Below, piece after piece: positions 51,667 through 59,959 of a DNA stretch of 64,000 nucleotides. The DNA lies in sequence record MT446421.1; one strand, given 5' to 3'. The notes under the pieces were generated by a model. It ran no database searches, was not told the origin of the DNA, and worked only from the letters and a program-made list of their open reading frames with translations. A program made the position numbers and the translations under genes. Source of the stretch: Escherichia virus TH55. Every line of letters begins with the position of its first letter. Position 1 is the first letter of the stretch.

Positions 51667-51966
51667 TTAGAAAGAACCAGAACCTTTAATTGTGTTCTGG
51701 CGACCTTTATTTTCTAATTCAGAATGGTCGATTTCGTATGCTTGTGCTACACCAAAGGCCTTTTTAACTTTAGCTAAAGAGCCTTTAGATGTGACAATAT
51801 TAAAAGTATTGCCTTTAGTAAAATCAACCAAATCCACTTGTACACCCTGTTTACCGAGGCTTGCTACAATAGCATCAACATATTGTTGGTCTAAATTGCC
51901 CTGGACTCCGATTTGAAATGCTTTGGGAGCTTTGGCTTCAGTAATAAATTCTTGATAAGTTTTCAT
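51667..51966 (-). CDS. internal protein (IP) with capsid-targeting sequence
   Basis: Trimmed to Met of MKTYQEFITEAK, the T4 IP capsid-targeting N-terminus. Confidence 0.6.
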   Translation of the reverse strand: MKTYQEFITEAKAPKAFQIGVQGNLDQQYVDAIVASLGKQGVQVDLVDFTKGNTFNIVTSKGSLAKVKKAFGVAQAYEIDHSELENKGRQNTIKGSGSF

Positions 51967-52014
51967 TTTATATTCCATTGTTTGGTTAATAAAATCATTA
52001 TACAACCTTTTTAG

Positions 52015-52486: not shown

Positions 52487-52756
52487 TCATTTCTTAGAGT
52501 ATTGACCCATAAGTTTAGCGATATCACCCAATTTCTGATTAAACAAATAATCCACTTCTTTGCCAGATTTATCTACAATTTGCCACTGACCATTTCCTTT
52601 GTTGCCAAAGGTCCAATCACCGACTTTAAATGAAGTTCCATTAACTTTTTTAATAGAAGTAAACTCAAAGCCTTCTTTCTTAGCTAAAAATGCCATGCGG
52701 CTTTCATCTGATTCATTTAATACAGATTCAGCCAAAAATTCTTGATACGTTTTCAT
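52487..52756 (-). CDS. internal protein (IP) with capsid-targeting sequence
   Basis: 89 aa; N-terminal MKTYQEFLAE capsid-targeting motif. Confidence 0.65.
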   Translation of the reverse strand: MKTYQEFLAESVLNESDESRMAFLAKKEGFEFTSIKKVNGTSFKVGDWTFGNKGNGQWQIVDKSGKEVDYLFNQKLGDIAKLMGQYSKK

Positions 52757-53741: not shown

Positions 53742-53970
53742 CGTCACGTTTCCATGATTGGTTAAAAATATCACTCATTAAAAATTCAAGTCTATTTTCC
53801 AATGAAGGGCTTTCACTACTAGAAACTTGAACCATGTAGTCGGAAATAGGTCGGAACATATCCAAGTCAGTTTCTAAATCATCTTTGATTTTCTCTTCTG
53901 ATGTACCTGTATCATAGGAATACAGATAAGAATCACATGACTCTGATTTAATATAAATTGCAATACTCAT
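53734..53970 (-). CDS. hypothetical acidic protein
   Basis: 78-aa ORF. Confidence 0.45.
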   Translation of the reverse strand: MSIAIYIKSESCDSYLYSYDTGTSEEKIKDDLETDLDMFRPISDYMVQVSSSESPSLENRLEFLMSDIFNQSWKRDDE

Positions 53971-54554
53971 TTACGGCATTCCTCAATAAAGGAGTTCAAT
54001 GTATTTTTCTTAGTGATATCGTCATATACCTTTTTAACTTTAGAAATACGAAAAGGTACTTCAATAACCATAGTCCATAAAAATGATGCAATAAGTCCAG
54101 CAAGAGCAGTAGAAAAGCACGCACCCATTACAGCTACGGGTGCTTCATTTTTGCCTGTCAAGAAAAACCACAGGAATGGTAAAAATAAGATTCCAGCCCA
54201 GGCATAAAACCTGGAACAAATTAACTTATCAAATTCATCACTCCAGGTACGAAATCCATATTTCTTGCTATAAGAAATTAATGGGTCGGGTGTCTGTTCT
54301 TTGAGTGGTTCTGGTTGATACCCATTAATGATATATCCCATTTTATATTCCTTAATTAAAAGCTCTTTCACATGACGATTGCATCGCGACCAATCAACAT
54401 TTTCCACCTTGATTCCTTCATCACCATCATCAAGGTTCGCCCAATATTTTTTGGTAATCATAAATTCATCTCTTGATACAATTATACCTGCATTTTCCGA
54501 CCGACGGATGAAGTTTACATCAACACCCATACAACCCGGCTCATAAAGGGCCAT
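53967..54554 (-). CDS. membrane protein, FI-x-EC-K/R tail family
   Basis: 195 aa; TM helices; C-terminus ...NSFIEECRK. Confidence 0.5.
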   Translation of the reverse strand: MALYEPGCMGVDVNFIRRSENAGIIVSRDEFMITKKYWANLDDGDEGIKVENVDWSRCNRHVKELLIKEYKMGYIINGYQPEPLKEQTPDPLISYSKKYGFRTWSDEFDKLICSRFYAWAGILFLPFLWFFLTGKNEAPVAVMGACFSTALAGLIASFLWTMVIEVPFRISKVKKVYDDITKKNTLNSFIEECRK

Positions 54555-55240
54555 TACCAGCCCTCCATAGGGAATTCCAGATATACTTGAGCATTAACGC
54601 GGATTTCATTTGTAATCTTTTTAACACGGTCGGTATTACGAGACACACGACCAAACCAGCGCCAACCGTTACTTACTGCGCGAGAACCTGTATGCCATGT
54701 CTGCCAATCAAACTGGAGCAACGTGCGGTCAGGAGCATCCCACTTGGCTAATTCATTGGACTCAATTTTTTCCAGAACTTCTTTATGCCACTGACGATAG
54801 ATAAGTTCGCCTTCAGGAATCTGACTAAATTGTGCAGTTCCGGTTGCAAAATAAGTAGGACACACATCAGCGTTAACAAGACCAAGAATATGTTCAGAAT
54901 GGTAACGAGGATTATCATAATCAGGTTGCCCTGCAGTAATAAAGTGTTGACCAACCGGAATATCCGGGCGTGGTACATCGTCATGGTGATAACCTGGGAT
55001 AGCAGGATACCAACCAGGCATCAGCATATGAACCCGAGAATCAAATACAACCTGGTCGGTGTTCCAATCATCCGGCAGACTCATAATAAAGCTACGAGTA
55101 ATAGGACCGCCATTGTCAAAAGCGAAAGCCAATGAGCTGTTGAAGAACATAGTTTCGTTTTTGATTTTATCATTAGAAATTTTACCAGCGAAACTGCCTA
55201 CTGCATGAGCTTGAGAATTAAAAGTTTTTGGACCGTTCAT
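54554..55240 (-). CDS. hypothetical protein
   Basis: 228-aa ORF; GAGGA SD; His/Asp-rich, no confident family call. Confidence 0.5.
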   Translation of the reverse strand: MNGPKTFNSQAHAVGSFAGKISNDKIKNETMFFNSSLAFAFDNGGPITRSFIMSLPDDWNTDQVVFDSRVHMLMPGWYPAIPGYHHDDVPRPDIPVGQHFITAGQPDYDNPRYHSEHILGLVNADVCPTYFATGTAQFSQIPEGELIYRQWHKEVLEKIESNELAKWDAPDRTLLQFDWQTWHTGSRAVSNGWRWFGRVSRNTDRVKKITNEIRVNAQVYLEFPMEGW

Positions 55241-55267
55241 AATATTTTCCTCATTGATTGTGGGACC

Positions 55268-55296
55268 ATTGTGTCATAGTCCCACTTGGATGTACA
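55268..55296 (-). promoter_or_regulatory. early-type promoter (weak -10)
   Basis: -35 TGTACA 55291-55296, 17 bp, -10 CACAAT 55268-55273. Confidence 0.35.
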
Positions 55297-55299
55297 CAC

Positions 55300-56280
55300 T
55301 TATTTTTCGAAAGGACGAATTAAATGTTGGTTAGCCTTGAAACGTTTAACATAGTCTTCGTGACCCAGGGTGTTGTACATATTAACCACTTCCTGGTAAT
55401 GTTCCCAGGCATACTCGCGGAACCATCCAGAAGTAATGGAGGTGCAGACTTTTTCCAGCGCAATATGGAAGCTCACGGATGGAGAGATATTGAACTCATT
55501 GGGAACCTGCGAACGCTCCAGAGCGAGTACACATGCTTCTTCATAAACCCCTGCCAGTTTAATAATCTCAGGGAGTGCTTCAAATTTTTCACGCGAGGTC
55601 ATAACTTCTGAATCATCTTTCATATAGAACTTATATGCAGGCTTATCAGCAAGCGCCACGGCCTCGTGGATGGAGTCATGGTCAAGGGTATAGATTGTAT
55701 CATTAAAGAAAGTTTTCTTGCCCACGTCTAGTTTAGGGTGACTATATGACAATGTTTCTGCCTGGCGCTGCAGCATGATTTTATGCAGTTCGTCATTAAG
55801 AACAACCCCCTTATTGCGAAGGTAATTAATATGACTCATGGTCTTCAGGAAGAATGGATTGTTCTTCAGGTAACGATGAGACAATTTAATTGCCAGACAA
55901 ATATCAGGAGTCGCCCAGTAAAAACCAGATAGACGGTCTTTCTGAATATTTGCCTTCGCATATTTGAGTAAACGATAACTGGAGGTAAAATCTTCCTCTT
56001 GTAGCTCATCAGTCAGCTCACGAACACTTGTCAATGCGCGGACGATGTACGCTTCAAAATAGGTTTCTTTACCATTGTGCATACATTTAAAAGCTTGAAC
56101 ATCTGGGTTATCCACATGCACATGTTGTCCCATCATCTGGGTTTTAAAGCTATTCCAGGAGCCCTGGTCAGCGATAAAGTCCCAATCAGAGTTTTCAATT
56201 TTCTGACTTTCAATCAGACCAGCGTTATGTAATGCACGAGAACCAATAACTAACATCATAATATTTTCCTCAAATAACAC
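55300..56280 (-). CDS. hypothetical protein
   Basis: 326-aa ORF. Confidence 0.55.
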   Translation of the reverse strand: MLFEENIMMLVIGSRALHNAGLIESQKIENSDWDFIADQGSWNSFKTQMMGQHVHVDNPDVQAFKCMHNGKETYFEAYIVRALTSVRELTDELQEEDFTSSYRLLKYAKANIQKDRLSGFYWATPDICLAIKLSHRYLKNNPFFLKTMSHINYLRNKGVVLNDELHKIMLQRQAETLSYSHPKLDVGKKTFFNDTIYTLDHDSIHEAVALADKPAYKFYMKDDSEVMTSREKFEALPEIIKLAGVYEEACVLALERSQVPNEFNISPSVSFHIALEKVCTSITSGWFREYAWEHYQEVVNMYNTLGHEDYVKRFKANQHLIRPFEK

Positions 56281-56511
56281 TTAAATTTCAGCAGCAGAGA
56301 TATTAGATTCATCTATCATCTCAGAGGCGGACCCCTTAACGATAGGAACCAATTTGCCATAGAGGTCTTCATTATAAGGGTCGTTGATACAGTGTGCATC
56401 TTCAAAACGAACACCGTAATCAGACTTCTTATAAACGAGACCGTAAATCTTTGTAAACTTAGCACGACTAATTTTTACAGGCTCATCAGTCATTGGGGCG
56501 TAATACCACAT
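56281..56511 (-). CDS. hypothetical protein
   Basis: 76-aa ORF with own promoter motif. Confidence 0.45.
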   Translation of the reverse strand: MWYYAPMTDEPVKISRAKFTKIYGLVYKKSDYGVRFEDAHCINDPYNEDLYGKLVPIVKGSASEMIDESNISAAEI

Positions 56512-56539
56512 AATGTTTTCCTCATTAGTTGACGAAATA

Positions 56540-56568
56540 ATGATACTACATTTCTTTAGGCTTGTACA
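56540..56568 (-). promoter_or_regulatory. early-type promoter
   Basis: -35 TGTACA 56563-56568, 17 bp, -10 TATCAT 56540-56545. Confidence 0.55.
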
Positions 56569-56614
56569 CTAAATTTCTGCACATAAGTCCTCCTATCACA
56601 TCCTTGTGATTAAA

Positions 56615-56842
56615 TTATTTTCCTAACGAAATACGAGTAGGTTTTTTACCGAAATATTCTTCATAGGAACCATCTAAACGACCTGCTTTAGACCGACAGT
56701 ATGAATCATACTTTTTGTAATAAGTCAACTCTGTATTGTAACGTGGATGTCTATCAGCCATAATAATACTTAACGGCCAGCCTTTAGCATAATCGATAAG
56801 ACCATTTATTTTACGAATATATCTTTTCTTTAATTTTAGCAT
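56615..56842 (-). CDS. hypothetical basic protein
   Basis: 75-aa ORF. Confidence 0.45.
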   Translation of the reverse strand: MLKLKKRYIRKINGLIDYAKGWPLSIIMADRHPRYNTELTYYKKYDSYCRSKAGRLDGSYEEYFGKKPTRISLGK

Positions 56843-57069
56843 GAGCTTGGGTACCAGATTTTACCATCGGCACGAGCAACGAAGGTGCGACCAGCTTCTT
56901 CACCATAACAAGAGCTGTTCAACCAGTCTTCAAGACGGACTTCGCCGTCATAATCATCAAGCTCGACACCGAAATCTTGAGCAGAAGCCATATCTTTTAC
57001 TTTCTTATACAGCGCGGCCAGTTCAAGGGCAGCTTTTTCTAATTCAGCATGTTCAACAGCAGTAGTCAT
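56836..57069 (-). CDS. small acidic protein, WxSSxC-tail paralog 1
   Basis: 77 aa; AAGGTGA SD; C-terminus ...GKIWYPSSC. Confidence 0.55.
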   Translation of the reverse strand: MTTAVEHAELEKAALELAALYKKVKDMASAQDFGVELDDYDGEVRLEDWLNSSCYGEEAGRTFVARADGKIWYPSSC

Positions 57070-57078
57070 TTTATCACC

Positions 57079-57309
57079 TTAGCAAGTCATAGAGGAGTTA
57101 AACCAGAAACCCTGGCCATCATTGATGCCGTAATCACTGCGAATCCAGTCATATTCTTCATATTCTTCGCTAGAAGCCGGAATATAACGTTGGAAACGGT
57201 CTGCGGCGTGTAAATTAAAAATTTCACCGGTTTTATCGGCTAACTGCTCACCTTCACAGATTAGTGCACGGATTTGGTCTTCAATTTCTTTAACAGTTTT
57301 AGTAGTCAT
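57079..57309 (-). CDS. small acidic protein, WxSSxC-tail paralog 2
   Basis: 76 aa; AAGGT SD; C-terminus ...GFWFNSSMTC. Confidence 0.55.
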   Translation of the reverse strand: MTTKTVKEIEDQIRALICEGEQLADKTGEIFNLHAADRFQRYIPASSEEYEEYDWIRSDYGINDGQGFWFNSSMTC

Positions 57310-57318
57310 TTTATAACC

Positions 57319-57516
57319 TTAGCATTCATAAGAGGAGGACACCCAAGAGGTACCGCTAATAGTAATACAACCATTATAAAGCGTAATATGTTGTTCCAGA
57401 TTACGCTGACCGTCAATATAGATATCAGCTTCTTCGCGTTCTTCTTTGCAAATCTGGATAACGTTTTCAATAGCTGCCGCGGCAGTACGGATTGCACAAT
57501 CTAATTCACGAGACAT
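57319..57516 (-). CDS. small acidic protein, WxSSxC-tail paralog 3
   Basis: Trimmed to ATG 57514-57516 (AAGGAA SD); C-terminus ...GTSWVSSSYEC. Confidence 0.55.
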   Translation of the reverse strand: MSRELDCAIRTAAAAIENVIQICKEEREEADIYIDGQRNLEQHITLYNGCITISGTSWVSSSYEC

Positions 57517-57524
57517 ATAATTCC

Positions 57525-57806
57525 TTAACATTCAGAAGAGGAGGACACCCAACCGCCATTTTCTAGGTCGGTTGTGTAGTCATGAGTATTAACAATAGCC
57601 CATTCAGGATGACCATCTTCTTCCCAATGAGCAAGGTCAGCTTTCAAGGCGCCAGGAGAATAATAGTCACCGCCCATACCGCGAGCAGGGTATATATTAA
57701 AATGAGTCTCATATTTGTCTGCAATTTCCTCAGCACGGCGAATGGCTTCATGGATTTCTTTTACTGCGGCCAGAAGCTCTGGTTGGTTATGGTTATCATT
57801 CATCAT
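57525..57806 (-). CDS. small acidic protein, WxSSxC-tail paralog 4
   Basis: Trimmed to MMNDNHN start abutting upstream stop; C-terminus ...GGWVSSSSEC. Confidence 0.55.
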   Translation of the reverse strand: MMNDNHNQPELLAAVKEIHEAIRRAEEIADKYETHFNIYPARGMGGDYYSPGALKADLAHWEEDGHPEWAIVNTHDYTTDLENGGWVSSSSEC

Positions 57807-57807
57807 A

Positions 57808-58098
57808 TTAGCACATCTCAGAAGAGGAAACCCAGGCACCAACAGTAACAACGCCGTTTTCAACTCGCCCGCCGTTGTTTTCAATATGGTGAGCGAACCA
57901 TTCGGAACATTCATAACCAACTGGATGATATGTACGGCCGGTGCCGTAATCACCAGTGCTGAATTCGATACCATATTCATCTGCGATTTCTTCACAGTGT
58001 TTTTCAATTTCAGAGGTCTTATTTAGAAGAGAATAGATGGCTTTTTCTGCAGATTTCTCATCATAATACTTGGGGATAGCAATTTCAATTTTATTCAT
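57808..58098 (-). CDS. small acidic protein, WxSSxC-tail paralog 5
   Basis: 96 aa; AAGGAA SD; C-terminus ...GAWVSSSEMC. Confidence 0.55.
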   Translation of the reverse strand: MNKIEIAIPKYYDEKSAEKAIYSLLNKTSEIEKHCEEIADEYGIEFSTGDYGTGRTYHPVGYECSEWFAHHIENNGGRVENGVVTVGAWVSSSEMC

Positions 58099-58448
58099 GA
58101 TTTACATTCCTTAATAAAGGTTTCAAGGTCATTACGTTTTGTTTTGTCTAGGAACTTATTATACTCAGCCATTGCCAAAGCGTATCTCTTTCGGCTGGGA
58201 GCATTCACGGCATTTGTGTGACAGATATCATACACAACCGGGATAAAATAAGCCACAACAGCCGGAGCAATTATCATAAAGAAGCCCATCTCAATAGGCA
58301 TGACTCCCTCGATTGCAGCCATAACCGTGGTCATTACCAGACCAACCAAACCACCAAGCATGGCAGTGACAATCCCCAATAATAAATTGCCGCCAATATC
58401 ATATTCAGCCAATTGATAAACATGTGATGCAAGACTAGGCCGTTCCAT
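58095..58448 (-). CDS. membrane protein, FI-x-EC-K/R tail family
   Basis: Trimmed to ATG 58446-58448 (AAGGAGG SD); TM helices; C-terminus ...LETFIKECKS. Confidence 0.5.
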   Translation of the reverse strand: MERPSLASHVYQLAEYDIGGNLLLGIVTAMLGGLVGLVMTTVMAAIEGVMPIEMGFFMIIAPAVVAYFIPVVYDICHTNAVNAPSRKRYALAMAEYNKFLDKTKRNDLETFIKECKS

Positions 58449-58794
58449 TACGAACCTCCTTAATAAATTCTTCGGCACATTTAATTTTGTGCTCTTCTTG
58501 TAGGGAAACACATTTTTGTTCCCACTCTTTAACTCGTCCACGGTATCCTTTATTCATATGATTTTGATGCCACACATTTATCAAAATCATACTCAGGACT
58601 GTAATAAAAGGAGCTGCGATTATTAGCGCCCAGGCAACTCCAACACTAATGATACTCATATCCCCACAAAGCACCATCATTATAACCCCAACGATGCATA
58701 TGGACAGGGCCCCAAATGCTGGCATAAGGTCTTTATCAATTTTGTCTGCGTATACAAATTTTTCTGGTTTACTTGGCAGATATAACGTTCGCAT
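58435..58794 (-). CDS. membrane protein, FI-x-E tail family
   Basis: Trimmed to ATG 58792-58794 (AAGGGG SD); TM helices; C-terminus ...AEEFIKEVRNGTA. Confidence 0.5.
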   Translation of the reverse strand: MRTLYLPSKPEKFVYADKIDKDLMPAFGALSICIVGVIMMVLCGDMSIISVGVAWALIIAAPFITVLSMILINVWHQNHMNKGYRGRVKEWEQKCVSLQEEHKIKCAEEFIKEVRNGTA

Positions 58795-59341
58795 TTTGAA
58801 CCCCTTTAGCATATTCACGACATTCAGCAATAAAACGATTAAGCTTACGTTTCCGTTTACGACCCTCTAATGTATACTCAGCCGCCAAATCAAGAAGCTC
58901 ATCTTTATCATAATTTTTAATATCAGTATAAGTTGGGCGGCGGTCAACCATTCCAAAGTGGTCACCATTTTCCAACATCAAATAACACACCAAATGGTCA
59001 TCATCGTCCGCATTAATAAGCTGCTTATAATCACTTGGTTCATTTAACGCATACACAGAATAACTCAGCCCAGCGAATTCCACTCGTTGAATACCCAGAT
59101 TTACGTCAATAATTTCCAAGGCATCTGCAAAAGAAAGGTCTTCAGCTAAAGCAAAAATAAAAGGCAATTTGGTAGTATCGCCGCGACTTGTTGTTCTTCT
59201 TAAGAAATCATTGGAATAGCCCAAGTCGCGGCGGATTCTATAAAGAACTGTGTTAGTTTCAGTGGCAAGACCACTACCGCCAAACCATTCCACATTTGAT
59301 AAAAGATTATCATATAAAGTCATAATTTTCTCCTCTCCCAA
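58769..59341 (-). CDS. hypothetical protein with FI-x-EC-R motif
   Basis: 190 aa; C-terminal KRKRKLNRFIAECREYAKG. Confidence 0.5.
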   Translation of the reverse strand: MGEEKIMTLYDNLLSNVEWFGGSGLATETNTVLYRIRRDLGYSNDFLRRTTSRGDTTKLPFIFALAEDLSFADALEIIDVNLGIQRVEFAGLSYSVYALNEPSDYKQLINADDDDHLVCYLMLENGDHFGMVDRRPTYTDIKNYDKDELLDLAAEYTLEGRKRKRKLNRFIAECREYAKGVQNANVISAK

Positions 59342-59365
59342 TTAGGGGGCTTTGCCCCCTTTATC

Positions 59366-59959
59366 TTACTTAAGTGAATTGATGTATTCTTCAATGTCAG
59401 CGGACGTGGTATCCACACCAACCTGTGGACCTTTGAAGGTTTCAACACGCATCAAGGTGTCTTCAATATCAATCTTAGTCAATGCAGCGATTTCAACAAC
59501 ATCATCTGCAGTCGCAATACCCAGGGCAGATACCTTACGGGTTTCGCGGATGTATTCCAGTTTAACAGCTAGTTCCTGACGAGAATCATCCAGCTCTTTA
59601 ACTTTCAATTTAATTTCATTACGCATTTCAACATAATCGTCTGCCTTCTTACGAAGTTGTTTAGCAGTGCGACGATACAGGAGACCCAGTTTAGCATGGA
59701 CCTGGACATCAGCACCATCAGCAATCAGTTTGCGGATTTCACGCTCTTTTGAGGCGGCGAGTTGGTCTTTTTCATTCGCTAACTCGCGGATGCGTTTTTC
59801 TTCATTAACAGACTTAACGTGGGCGGTCTGGAGCTCAGTAATCTTGTCAATCAGGGTAGACGCCGCTTGAGTATATTGGTCTTCAATAGACAGGTTTTTT
59901 GCCATTGCAGTACCCAGTTTGGAGCGGATGAATTCAACAAGTTTCTTTAAAGTATTCAT
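59366..59959 (-). CDS. coiled-coil protein
   Basis: 197 aa; extended heptad-like helical sequence. Confidence 0.5.

Follow-up and report, generated by a model that had tools for sequence, protein, structure and literature searches.

A shared C-terminal tail peptide on the e.2, e.3, e.4 and e.5 counterparts of a T4-like phage: a candidate docking module

The nudE-e.6 block and its four tail-bearing genes

We analysed a 64,000-nucleotide stretch of Escherichia virus TH55 (record MT446421.1), hereafter the window, whose DNA is 100% identical to that of Escherichia phage UPEC07 (MW250787; Gaprivervirus, Tevenvirinae), and we concentrate here on four small proteins encoded in it that end in a similar short peptide, which we call the tail. 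Comparison with the annotated records of phages SP18 and T4 identifies the four open reading frames (ORFs) as the counterparts of T4 e.2, e.3, e.4 and e.5. All genes of the block lie on the minus strand of the window, and the four ORFs, first pointed out in an earlier note on this DNA, do exist there with the C-termini originally read for them. The genes and their tails are as follows; C-terminal sequences, here and below, are quoted up to the stop codon unless followed by dots.

53967..54554, minus strand: e.2-like gene, 195 amino acids (PHROG 2203, E = 5e-66; annotated e.2 in phage SP18), with an N-terminal soluble domain, two predicted transmembrane helices and a tail ending LNSFIEECRK
53970..53999, minus strand: e.2 tail LNSFIEECRK, with the core FIEECR at 53973-53990
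58095..58448, minus strand: e.3-like gene, 117 amino acids (PHROG 2330, E = 7e-46; sharing its BLAST cluster with T4 e.3), a membrane hairpin of two helices whose C-terminal region is basic and ends LETFIKECKS
58098..58127, minus strand: e.3 tail LETFIKECKS, with the core FIKECK at 58101-58118
58435..58794, minus strand: e.4-like gene, 119 amino acids (PHROG 2604, E = 4e-43; annotated e.4 in SP18), a two-helix membrane hairpin with the tail AEEFIKEVRNGTA, a variant without Cys
58438..58476, minus strand: e.4 tail, with the core FIKEVR at 58450-58467
58769..59323, minus strand: e.5-like gene, 184 amino acids from the ATG at 59323 (PHROG 8788, E = 9e-111), soluble, with the C-terminus KRKRKLNRFIAECREYAKGVQNANVISAK (also quoted as RKRKRKLNRFIAECREYAKGVQNANVISAK)
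58817..58843, minus strand: e.5 tail core LNRFIAECR, with FIAECR at 58817-58834

The ATG of e.5 at 59323 has the Shine-Dalgarno sequence GGAGAGGAG upstream and is also the start annotated in GenBank, which makes it a likelier start than the TTG at 59341 from which the ORF had been read before. T4 e.2, e.3 and e.4 share BLAST clusters with their window counterparts. The N-terminal domains of window e.5 and T4 e.5 match at 94% in hhalign, and at 79% once the tail is removed; this persistence of the match without the tail therefore identifies the e.5 proteins of UPEC07 and T4 as true distant orthologues.

In the annotation tables of SP18, UPEC07 and T4, and in 35 related loci, the four genes lie on the same strand between e.6 and nudE, in the shared order e.6-e.5-e.4-e.3-(insert)-e.2-nudE. 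In the window, e.6 (59366-59959) is immediately upstream of e.5, and nudE and e are downstream of e.2. The T4 genes e.2-e.5 resemble those of the window in order, in two-helix membrane topology and in their tails. They differ from them in that e.5-e.4-e.3-e.2 are contiguous, overlapping genes in T4, where e.2 is split into two ORFs, whereas the window has an insert of about 3.5 kb of extra genes separating e.3 from e.2. The insert holds five genes whose products share a W-x-S-S...C ending (the WxSS..C array), three further small ORFs, a DUF7277/DUF7275 protein and a PHROG 1843 protein. As originally described, three of the tail genes (e.5, e.4 and e.3) are directly upstream, in the direction of transcription, of the WxSS..C genes (56836-58098), and e.2 lies beyond the array.

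A hydropathy scan finds two transmembrane segments in each of e.2, e.3 and e.4 and none in e.5, in agreement with the initial description of three of the four as membrane proteins. Read along their sequences, e.2, e.3 and e.4 have a short, acidic or neutral loop between the helices and a Lys/Arg-rich stretch after the second helix, so that by the positive-inside rule their tails should face the cytoplasm; e.5 is predicted to be soluble.

No Pfam entry matches any tail protein among the window proteins and ten diverse relatives, and the names given to tail proteins in source databases are only 'hypothetical', 'membrane protein' or evidently wrong labels. In UniProt the T4 proteins appear as 'Uncharacterized 14.2 / 15.1 / 23.8 kDa protein in e-segB intergenic region', the corresponding PHROGs being 2203, 2330, 2604 and 8788/2607. 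Pfam, PHROGs, source names and a literature search of limited coverage yielded no function or shared motif for e.2-e.5; judged by these sources, the genes are known already and the shared tail appears not to have been described previously. Several labels in MW250787 are clearly wrong, e.2 being called 'portal vertex protein' and e.6 'host specificity protein', and three small ORFs of the WxSS..C region, one of which is not a WxSS..C gene, are mislabelled 'major capsid protein' (two) or 'tail completion protein'. T4 e.3/e.4 are called 'sulfurtransferase' in some records, with no Pfam support.

The tail as a portable C-terminal module

With instances weighted by cluster and positions counted from Phe as 0, the tail has the consensus [D/E]-h-[E/N]-x-F-[I/V]-x-x-C-R-[K/G]. 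Position -4 is acidic or Asn; position -3 is hydrophobic in 89% of clusters, though it was not used for picking instances; position -2 is Glu or Asn and position -1 Asp, Asn, Glu or Ser. Phe (or Trp or Tyr) at position 0 is followed by Ile or Val at +1, by two variable positions (+2 and +3), by Cys at +4 in 83% (cluster-weighted; otherwise M, I, V or S), by Arg at +5 in 90% and by Lys or Gly at +6. The distance from tail to stop is 0-15 residues, and 29 in one protein. The hydrophobic residues of the tail (-3, 0, +1 and +4) are spaced i, i+3, i+4, i+7, as along a single face of a helix, and the tail is an acid-capped, base-terminated amphipathic C-terminal segment.

Within the window, the pattern F[IV].EC[RK] matches three of 699 six-frame ORFs, all of them the e.2, e.3 and e.5 proteins and each no more than 21 residues from the stop, and a looser pattern adds e.4. 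Shuffling the residues of the 144 minus-strand ORFs gave a mean of 0.006 matches expected in the last 25 residues against 3 observed, or of 0.01 against 4 when the e.4 variant was allowed, which places the motif above its shuffled-control background. A position-specific scoring matrix derived from related phages assigns the four proteins 19-25 bits, the next real-frame match in the window reaching 7.7. Across 13 diverse loci there are 29 matches to F[IV]..CR no more than 22 residues from a C-terminus and one anywhere else (shuffles, 0.05), and a six-frame reading of the whole T4 genome gives C-terminal matches in no real genes other than e.5, e.3 and the e.2 remnant. Run against IMG/VR, a degenerate DNA pattern for FIKECRK followed by a stop codon gave in-frame matches only in T4-like contigs, together with three out-of-frame chance matches.

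Related loci were gathered with e.6 as the anchor, 18 at first and then 35 from IMG/VR, to which the two most distant e.6-bearing GenBank phages were added. The motif recurs throughout these sampled relatives: the tail is kept in all orthologues, including e.5 homologues that are only about 20% identical (EEFIKHCREAVNG). The T4 tails are EFVIDCRKIK in e.3, KFVKESRCKSQS in e.4 and KFVKECREYVKAITIPSK in e.5 (also quoted as KFVKECREYVK...), and the T2-type e.2 tail is NFITECRKLK. Further tail proteins of the same block carry KDFISECRGR, NEFVTYCRGNK, ESFIDDCRRARK, ENFISRCRVKR, EGFIRMCRKN..., LFVDYCRRTASKK and NSFIKYCRGKHVS. Altogether there are at least 29 tail-bearing BLAST clusters, 17 with a transmembrane segment and 12 soluble, and in the e.6-anchored sample every one of them maps between nudE and e.6 in T4-like phages of enterobacteria and Aeromonas. 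A phage has from 1 to 6 tail genes: Aeromonas-type phages have a single one, and in Morganella phage Rgz1 (32% identity in e.6) a run of six comes directly after e.6 (for example NYIKHCRGE and DFVDECRRRL), several with Tyr replacing Phe. The tail of Klebsiella phage phi1_146002 reads EKFIHSCKK. A phmmer search with e.3 against 1.8 billion representatives returned 8 proteins at E <= 0.001, of which the two inspected, P0037 and P0039, both carry the tail and four others are proteins of 600-1900 residues that match along several short stretches; word-based homologue searches returned close relatives only.

In a comparison that drew on T4 (NC_000866, 67472-67961) and on OL964735, the split e.2 gene of T4 differs from the intact 162-amino-acid T2-like e.2 in two places: an A-run has lost 1 nucleotide (nt), and 1 nt has been gained 78 nt further on. 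The annotated T4 e.2 (102 amino acids) consequently ends early, and the fragment with the second membrane helix and the tail (...NFITECRKLK) is an ORF that RefSeq leaves without annotation. A T4 clone sequenced independently is annotated with this split too, as two ORFs, so that the split is probably not a sequencing error.

The four proteins had initially been taken for a family of homologues, a view that does not survive comparison of the family alignments with and without the tail, since the profile similarity of e.2, e.3 and e.5 vanishes without the last 15 or so residues. Similarity among the four is limited to the last 14-20 residues: hhalign gave 84% over 18 columns for e.3-e.2, falling to 1.1% without the tail, 76% over 14 columns for e.5-e.2, falling to 0.2%, and 85% over 42 columns (juxtamembrane segment included) for e.3-e.4, falling to 17%. 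The last of these is the only pair among the four ORFs to keep a weak juxtamembrane signal, e.4-e.2 and e.5-e.3 standing at 0.4% and 0.1% without the tail; e.2 against another two-helix cluster went from 92% over 58 columns to 13%. These comparisons rule out whole-protein paralogy of the four ORFs, and PHROG cross-matches among them (E = 0.002-0.005) arise from the tail and the juxtamembrane region. In merged alignments the tail is the conservation peak, with a mean pair identity of 0.62 vs 0.29 for the e.5 proteins and of 0.43 vs 0.20 for the membrane proteins. The similarity between families being confined to the tail, we therefore read it as a portable C-terminal module carried on diverse bodies (two-helix hairpins and soluble domains) and not as a protein family.

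Peptide-level selection and overlapping ribosome-binding sites

Synonymous sites vary freely at the conserved residues of the tail. Its Cys is encoded by TGT 34 times and by TGC 33 times, its Phe by TTT 44 times and by TTC 20 times, and its Arg residues by AGA (17), CGT (16), AGG (15), CGA (6), CGC (4) and CGG (1). This pattern of codon use therefore indicates that selection on the tail acts at the protein level, on the peptide.

The tail codons also carry signals for the next gene, whose ATG mostly lies 20 or 26 nt past the Phe codon, in an ATGA overlap. The Shine-Dalgarno sequence of that gene is found in two arrangements, either in the two variable codons (AAGGAA = K-E, GAGGAA = E-E, AAAGGG = K-G, AGGAGC = R-S) or in the C-R-x codons (TGCAGGAAA or TGTAGAGGT). 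In the window, the e.2 codons GAG GAA (53979-53984) form a Shine-Dalgarno sequence followed, after 9 nt, by the ATGA of the next gene, whose ATG (53970-53968) overlaps the TGA stop. The e.3 codons AAG GAA (58107-58112) stand in the same way 9 nt ahead of the ATGA of the first WxSS..C gene (ATG 58098-58096), and the AAGGAGG of e.4 (58455-58461) precedes the ATG of e.3 (58448-58446) by 6 nt. In e.5 the motif does not double as a ribosome-binding site: e.4 has its Shine-Dalgarno sequence, AAAGGGG (58801-58807), about 10 nt further downstream. A purine run 5-12 nt before an overlapping or abutting start, the arrangement expected of a Shine-Dalgarno sequence in translational coupling, is accordingly present in three of the four genes.

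This dual coding accounts for one element of the first reading of the motif. Glu was counted into it, as 'x-E-C', because the [K/E]-E codons of e.2, e.3 and e.4 are the Shine-Dalgarno sequence of the next gene; Glu is present at +3 in four of the four window proteins but in only 36% of clusters, the others having Y, Q, G, D, M or further residues, and it is not part of the motif.

There are 23 unique tails without an overlapping start, for 14 of which the next start is more than 20 nt away, and the motif is kept in them (for example the Aeromonas-type LFVDYCRR, and LFLEYCRS and FIRMCRKN). An explanation of the conservation at the nucleotide level only fails on these 23 tails and on the synonymous variation at F, I/V, C and R. 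Since the motif is kept where nothing overlaps it, and since the Shine-Dalgarno sequence at the end of e.5 lies further downstream, the ribosome-binding site shapes the variable residues and the choice of codons, and does not create the motif.

Three alternatives take the coding DNA or its translation, and not a binding peptide, as the reason for the tail. It may have no function of its own, being a relic of tandem duplication of overlapping genes that is kept because its nucleotides double as ribosome-binding site and start region for the gene that follows. When that gene is taken to start at the next ATG, a simple heuristic, the overlap does reach the ATG in 82 of 105 unique tails; the Shine-Dalgarno sequence sits in the x-x or C-R-x codons; AGG makes up 15 of 59 tail Arg codons, 10 of these being placed 6-16 nt before the next ATG; and e.3 and e.4 look like tandem copies (hhalign 85% over 42 columns), with directly repeated junctions of ribosome-binding site and start, a repeat that also bounds the presence or absence of e.4. 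We nevertheless hold this explanation to be unlikely, as a Shine-Dalgarno sequence leaves F, I/V, C, R and the hydrophobic -3 unaccounted for, synonymous sites vary freely at the conserved positions, the 23 non-overlapping tails keep the motif, the motif of window e.5 is upstream of the real Shine-Dalgarno sequence, and the tail survives on bodies that have diverged to about 20% identity. Several of the same facts bear on the idea that tail-coding DNA is a junction cassette, that is, a boundary repeat promoting recombinational shuffling, gain and loss of genes. The region is certainly highly plastic, with 1 to 6 tail genes and with arrays inserted between e.3 and e.2, and in JS98-like phages without e.4 the e.5/e.3 junction is a hybrid of the e.5-end and e.4-end junctions of UPEC07; yet the repeat involved in the e.4 event is the segment of ribosome-binding site and start, not the F-I-x-x-C-R codons, tail codons within one genome share exact runs of only 6-7 nt, codons that differ at synonymous sites across clusters would make poor recombination substrates, and conservation at the amino-acid level is left unexplained, so that we regard the cassette as quite unlikely. 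A nascent peptide that slows the ribosome near the stop, and thereby tunes re-initiation at the overlapping start, would suit the tails lying 0-3 residues from the stop in about half of the clusters and the distance of exactly 20 or 26 nt from the Phe codon to the next ATG in the majority of instances. It is highly improbable in view of a stop distance that varies from 0 to 29 residues and of tails without an overlapping downstream gene, and we know of no arrest peptide that resembles the tail.

The JS98-like phages that lack e.4 merit a description in their own right. When one of them (L008, 10125-10215) is set against the window (58425-58830), the crossover falls inside the repeat AA(A/G)G(G/A)GGTTC(AA/GT)AATG, and the end of the JS98-like e.5 is chimeric (...ECREYAKEVQNGTA); the e.4 difference reads as a clear case of a gene being gained or lost when repeated junctions recombine.

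A putative docking helix, its candidate partner and the alternatives

We propose that the four e.2-e.5 counterparts share a modular tail that serves as a docking helix for a common cytoplasmic partner, possibly e.6, and we give this reading about an even chance of being right. The membrane anchors e.2, e.3 and e.4 and the soluble e.5 would bind one cytoplasmic partner, or each other, through the tail, and the result would be a membrane-associated complex produced from one translationally coupled operon. The most likely partner would be e.6, a protein with a long helical hairpin whose gene is the immediate upstream neighbour in nearly all lineages examined; the small membrane proteins would recruit or regulate it at the inner membrane by analogy with PspB/PspC and PspA, or with LiaI and LiaH. 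The earlier note had proposed a shared recognition, targeting or processing signal, or a common interaction partner; what stands of this is a genuine peptide-level feature that behaves like a signal or partner-binding module, and what does not is processing through Glu-Cys. Across whole e.4 lineages the Cys is replaced by V, S, M or I, which argues for a buried helix face or hydrophobic contact over thiol chemistry. The single tail gene of Aeromonas-type phages implies, for its part, that the partner need not be another tail protein.

Several points weigh against docking. Overlap with the start of the next gene in 82 of the 105 unique tails (by the heuristic given above) means that constraint at the nucleotide level contributes to the conservation near the stop codon. 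Because a regular expression served to pick tail instances, the 100% at F and I/V and the counts at C are partly circular. The AlphaFold2 model of e.5, from a 16-sequence alignment, has a predicted local distance difference test score (pLDDT) of 37 and is unusable; a helical tail is suggested by this weak model and by the periodicity of the sequence. Finally, the loci were collected via e.6, which makes the link between e.6 and the tail one-directional and leaves room for tails in phages that lack e.6; a NudE-based search for T4-like phages without e.6 returned the same host range.

The candidate partner and the element that separates it from e.5 are the following.

59366..59959, minus strand: e.6, 197 amino acids, a conserved coiled-coil gene
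59344..59360, minus strand: a perfect hairpin rich in G+C (coding strand, AGGGGGCAAAGCCCCCT), located after the stop of e.6 and before the ribosome-binding site of e.5

Of 18 distinct locus types, 17 have a tail on the product of the gene directly after e.6, as do the two most distant genomes, and e.6 is the only gene that always accompanies tails in the e.6-anchored sample. Its AlphaFold2 model (43 sequences, pLDDT 73) has helices at residues 2-15, 25-80, 86-145, 151-161, 165-173 and 186-196, that is, a helix at the N-terminus, then a hairpin whose two helices each span about 55-60 residues, then short helices at the C-terminus. In a Foldseek search of this model against the PDB, the nine top matches are all Vipp1 (E = 5e-3 to 7e-2), with a TM-score of 0.70 for 6zvs. 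From its sequence, e.6 could not be assigned to PspA: none of 43 e.6 homologues has a Pfam or NCBIfam match to PspA_IM30/Snf7, and the matches of the e.6 profile to Vipp1 among PDB sequences (E = 1.5) and, in hhalign, to E. coli PspA (0.8% probability) are colinear and non-significant. The notion of e.6 as a membrane-binding helical scaffold is thus a lead from the model. The C-terminus of e.6 itself fits the tail pattern loosely, the Tyr-containing Rgz1 tails helping the fit; it was rejected as a tail, being a loose pattern match that the matrix (trained on F/W at position 0) does not recover. The overlapping e.5-e.4-e.3 unit starts after the hairpin, which has an equivalent after T4 e.6 (GGGGCTTCGGCCCC) and may be a partial terminator or an RNA-stability element that sets e.6 apart from e.5-e.4-e.3. 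In a scan for promoters and terminators, promoter-like sites were no commoner than in shuffles, and this hairpin was the only notable feature.

The WxSS..C array between e.3 and e.2 consists of five tandem paralogs (56836-58098, minus strand; PHROG 899) that end in W-x-S-S-(0-4 residues)-C at the extreme C-terminus, one of them with an additional internal DWLNSSCYGE copy. Similar arrays lie downstream of e.3/e.4-like genes in several other genera. The two larger genes of the insert, both conserved and both placed between the array and e.2, are listed here.

54554-55240, minus strand: PHROG 1843 protein, 228 amino acids, between the array and e.2
55300-56280, minus strand: DUF7277+DUF7275 protein, 326 amino acids (Pfam E = 1e-75)

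Both recur beside WxSS..C arrays in other genera, and the DUF7277+DUF7275 protein is labelled nucleotidyltransferase in another phage record. The W-x-S-S-(0-4)-C ending is found in all five array genes and in none of the four tail proteins. The Glu-Cys attributed in the earlier note to both groups is real in three of the four tail proteins and in two of the five WxSS..C proteins of the window, and absent from the rest. Nor do the two groups always occur together: no WxSS..C protein is encoded in T4 in any frame, and the loci of T2-like, L020-type and Aeromonas-type phages have tails and no WxSS..C genes. We read the two motifs as different and separable, merely sharing a plastic neighbourhood.

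These comparisons leave the proposal that FI-x-EC tails and WxSS..C ends are one Glu-Cys-based recognition or processing signal scarcely tenable. A Cys lies near the C-terminus in both groups, and both are interleaved in the same gene block in several genera; against this, Glu is conserved in neither group, array ends including ...ALC, ...HTC, ...YSC, ...SSC and ...MTC, the contexts differ (W-x-S-S and a terminal Cys versus an amphipathic F-I-x-x-C-R), T4 and the T2-like, L020-type and Aeromonas-type phages have tails only, and there are e.4 lineages without the Cys. The last fact also tells against a chemically active Cys-Arg pair, be it a reactive thiolate, a metal ligand between subunits or a site of covalent modification. 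Such a role could be argued from a Cys that occurs in 83% of clusters (cluster-weighted) and has Arg or Lys after it in every case, and from the several co-expressed tail proteins that could each provide one ligand; it is very unlikely, given that V, I, M or S replaces Cys in lineages that keep the rest of the tail, that Aeh1/CC2-type tails have C-I and not C-R, that no enzyme partner is conserved in the block and that some phages have a single tail protein. Highly implausible, too, is the idea that the tail is the C-terminal counterpart of the T4 capsid targeting sequence (MKTYQEFIAE|A) and binds the prohead scaffolding core, in which case gp21 would cut after I-x-E where the Glu is present and the tail could tether proheads or load e.5 as cargo. 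The two peptides share the pattern h-x-x-F-I-x-E-(A/C)-(R/K), as in FIAECR of e.5 and FIAEAR of IPII/IPIII, or FITECR and FITEAK, and both are short portable peptides on diverse proteins of the same region, that of the capsid including the gp21 cleavage motif I/L-x-E. In the capsid targeting sequence, targeting requires residues 4 and 7 and processing requires residues 8 and 10 (PMC9026906), and these four correspond to tail positions -3, 0, +1 and +3; the genes of internal proteins are about 2 kb from e.2 in the window; and prohead assembly takes place on the inner membrane, from which proheads are released once gp21 has cleaved (PMC9026906), which would also favour the idea. Yet the capsid targeting sequence is N-terminal and the tail C-terminal (0-29 residues from the C-terminus), Glu at +3, dispensable in the tail, is present in only about 36% of clusters, and the capsid targeting sequence lacks the hallmark Cys. 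It scores 6.7 bits with the tail matrix, rank 13 among 58,000 T4 positions, and since nine unrelated positions outscore it, the resemblance comes close to what chance would give. Polytopic membrane proteins, moreover, cannot be capsid cargo; three of the four window carriers are two-helix membrane proteins, and membrane proteins make up most of the proteins with the tail; what PMC9026906 describes as making up the T4 prohead and head includes no e.x protein.

Two internal-head-protein genes of the window, 51667-52005 and 52487-52756 (minus strand), begin with the capsid targeting sequence (MKTYQEFITEAK... and MKTYQEFLAES...).

For the docking helix that we prefer, close parallels are offered by the small proteins that anchor PspA-family members to the membrane, as PspB/PspC do for PspA in E. 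coli and LiaI for LiaH in Bacillus (in part PMC7619361). Like these, e.2-e.4 would be small inner-membrane proteins encoded beside a long helical-hairpin protein with an N-terminal amphipathic helix, and the proposed contact is the cytoplasmic part of the membrane protein, the link to e.6 being one of conserved gene adjacency. Unlike PspB, PspC and LiaI, with which e.2-e.4 have no sequence similarity (Pfam), the tail system includes a soluble protein, e.5, that bears the same tail, and up to six tail proteins per phage; the relation of e.6 to PspA/Vipp1 is a lead at the level of the fold only. A literature search of limited coverage found nothing relevant on phage-encoded PspA/ESCRT-III. Portable C-terminal docking peptides are familiar from the MIM helices of ESCRT-III, which bind MIT domains, and from the cargo-loading peptides of encapsulins. 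The likeness of the tail to them is conceptual, a short C-terminal peptide on unrelated proteins that meets one partner, with no sequence relationship. T4-type phages are also said to carry mobile regulatory cassettes termed PeSL (promoter-early-stem-loop), reportedly described by Arbiol and co-workers in 2010. PeSL and the tail are alike as repeated short boundary elements of plastic T4-type regions that are tied to gene shuffling, and they differ in that PeSL are non-coding DNA repeats of promoter and hairpin, whereas the tail is coding, conserved as a peptide and free in its synonymous variation. A bolder version of the docking proposal, in which the whole nudE-e.6 block would be a membrane module with a PspA/Vipp1 (ESCRT-III-like) or BAR-like e.6 coupled via the tail to interchangeable anchors and adaptors diversified by N-terminal swaps, we put forward as a speculative and rather unlikely one.

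The e.2-e.8 block of T4 was sequenced decades ago, is dispensable in the laboratory and has no assigned function. The recognition of one tail on about 30 otherwise unrelated small proteins turns a set of 'hypothetical proteins' into a single testable module, and its 12-residue peptide can be used as a bait, a mutational handle and a search key. The block also provides a clean example of dual coding, in which the ribosome-binding site of the next gene shapes the variable residues and codon choice of a protein motif. If the partner is e.6, and if e.6 is PspA-like or ESCRT-III-like, these phages would encode a membrane-maintenance or membrane-remodelling system of their own.

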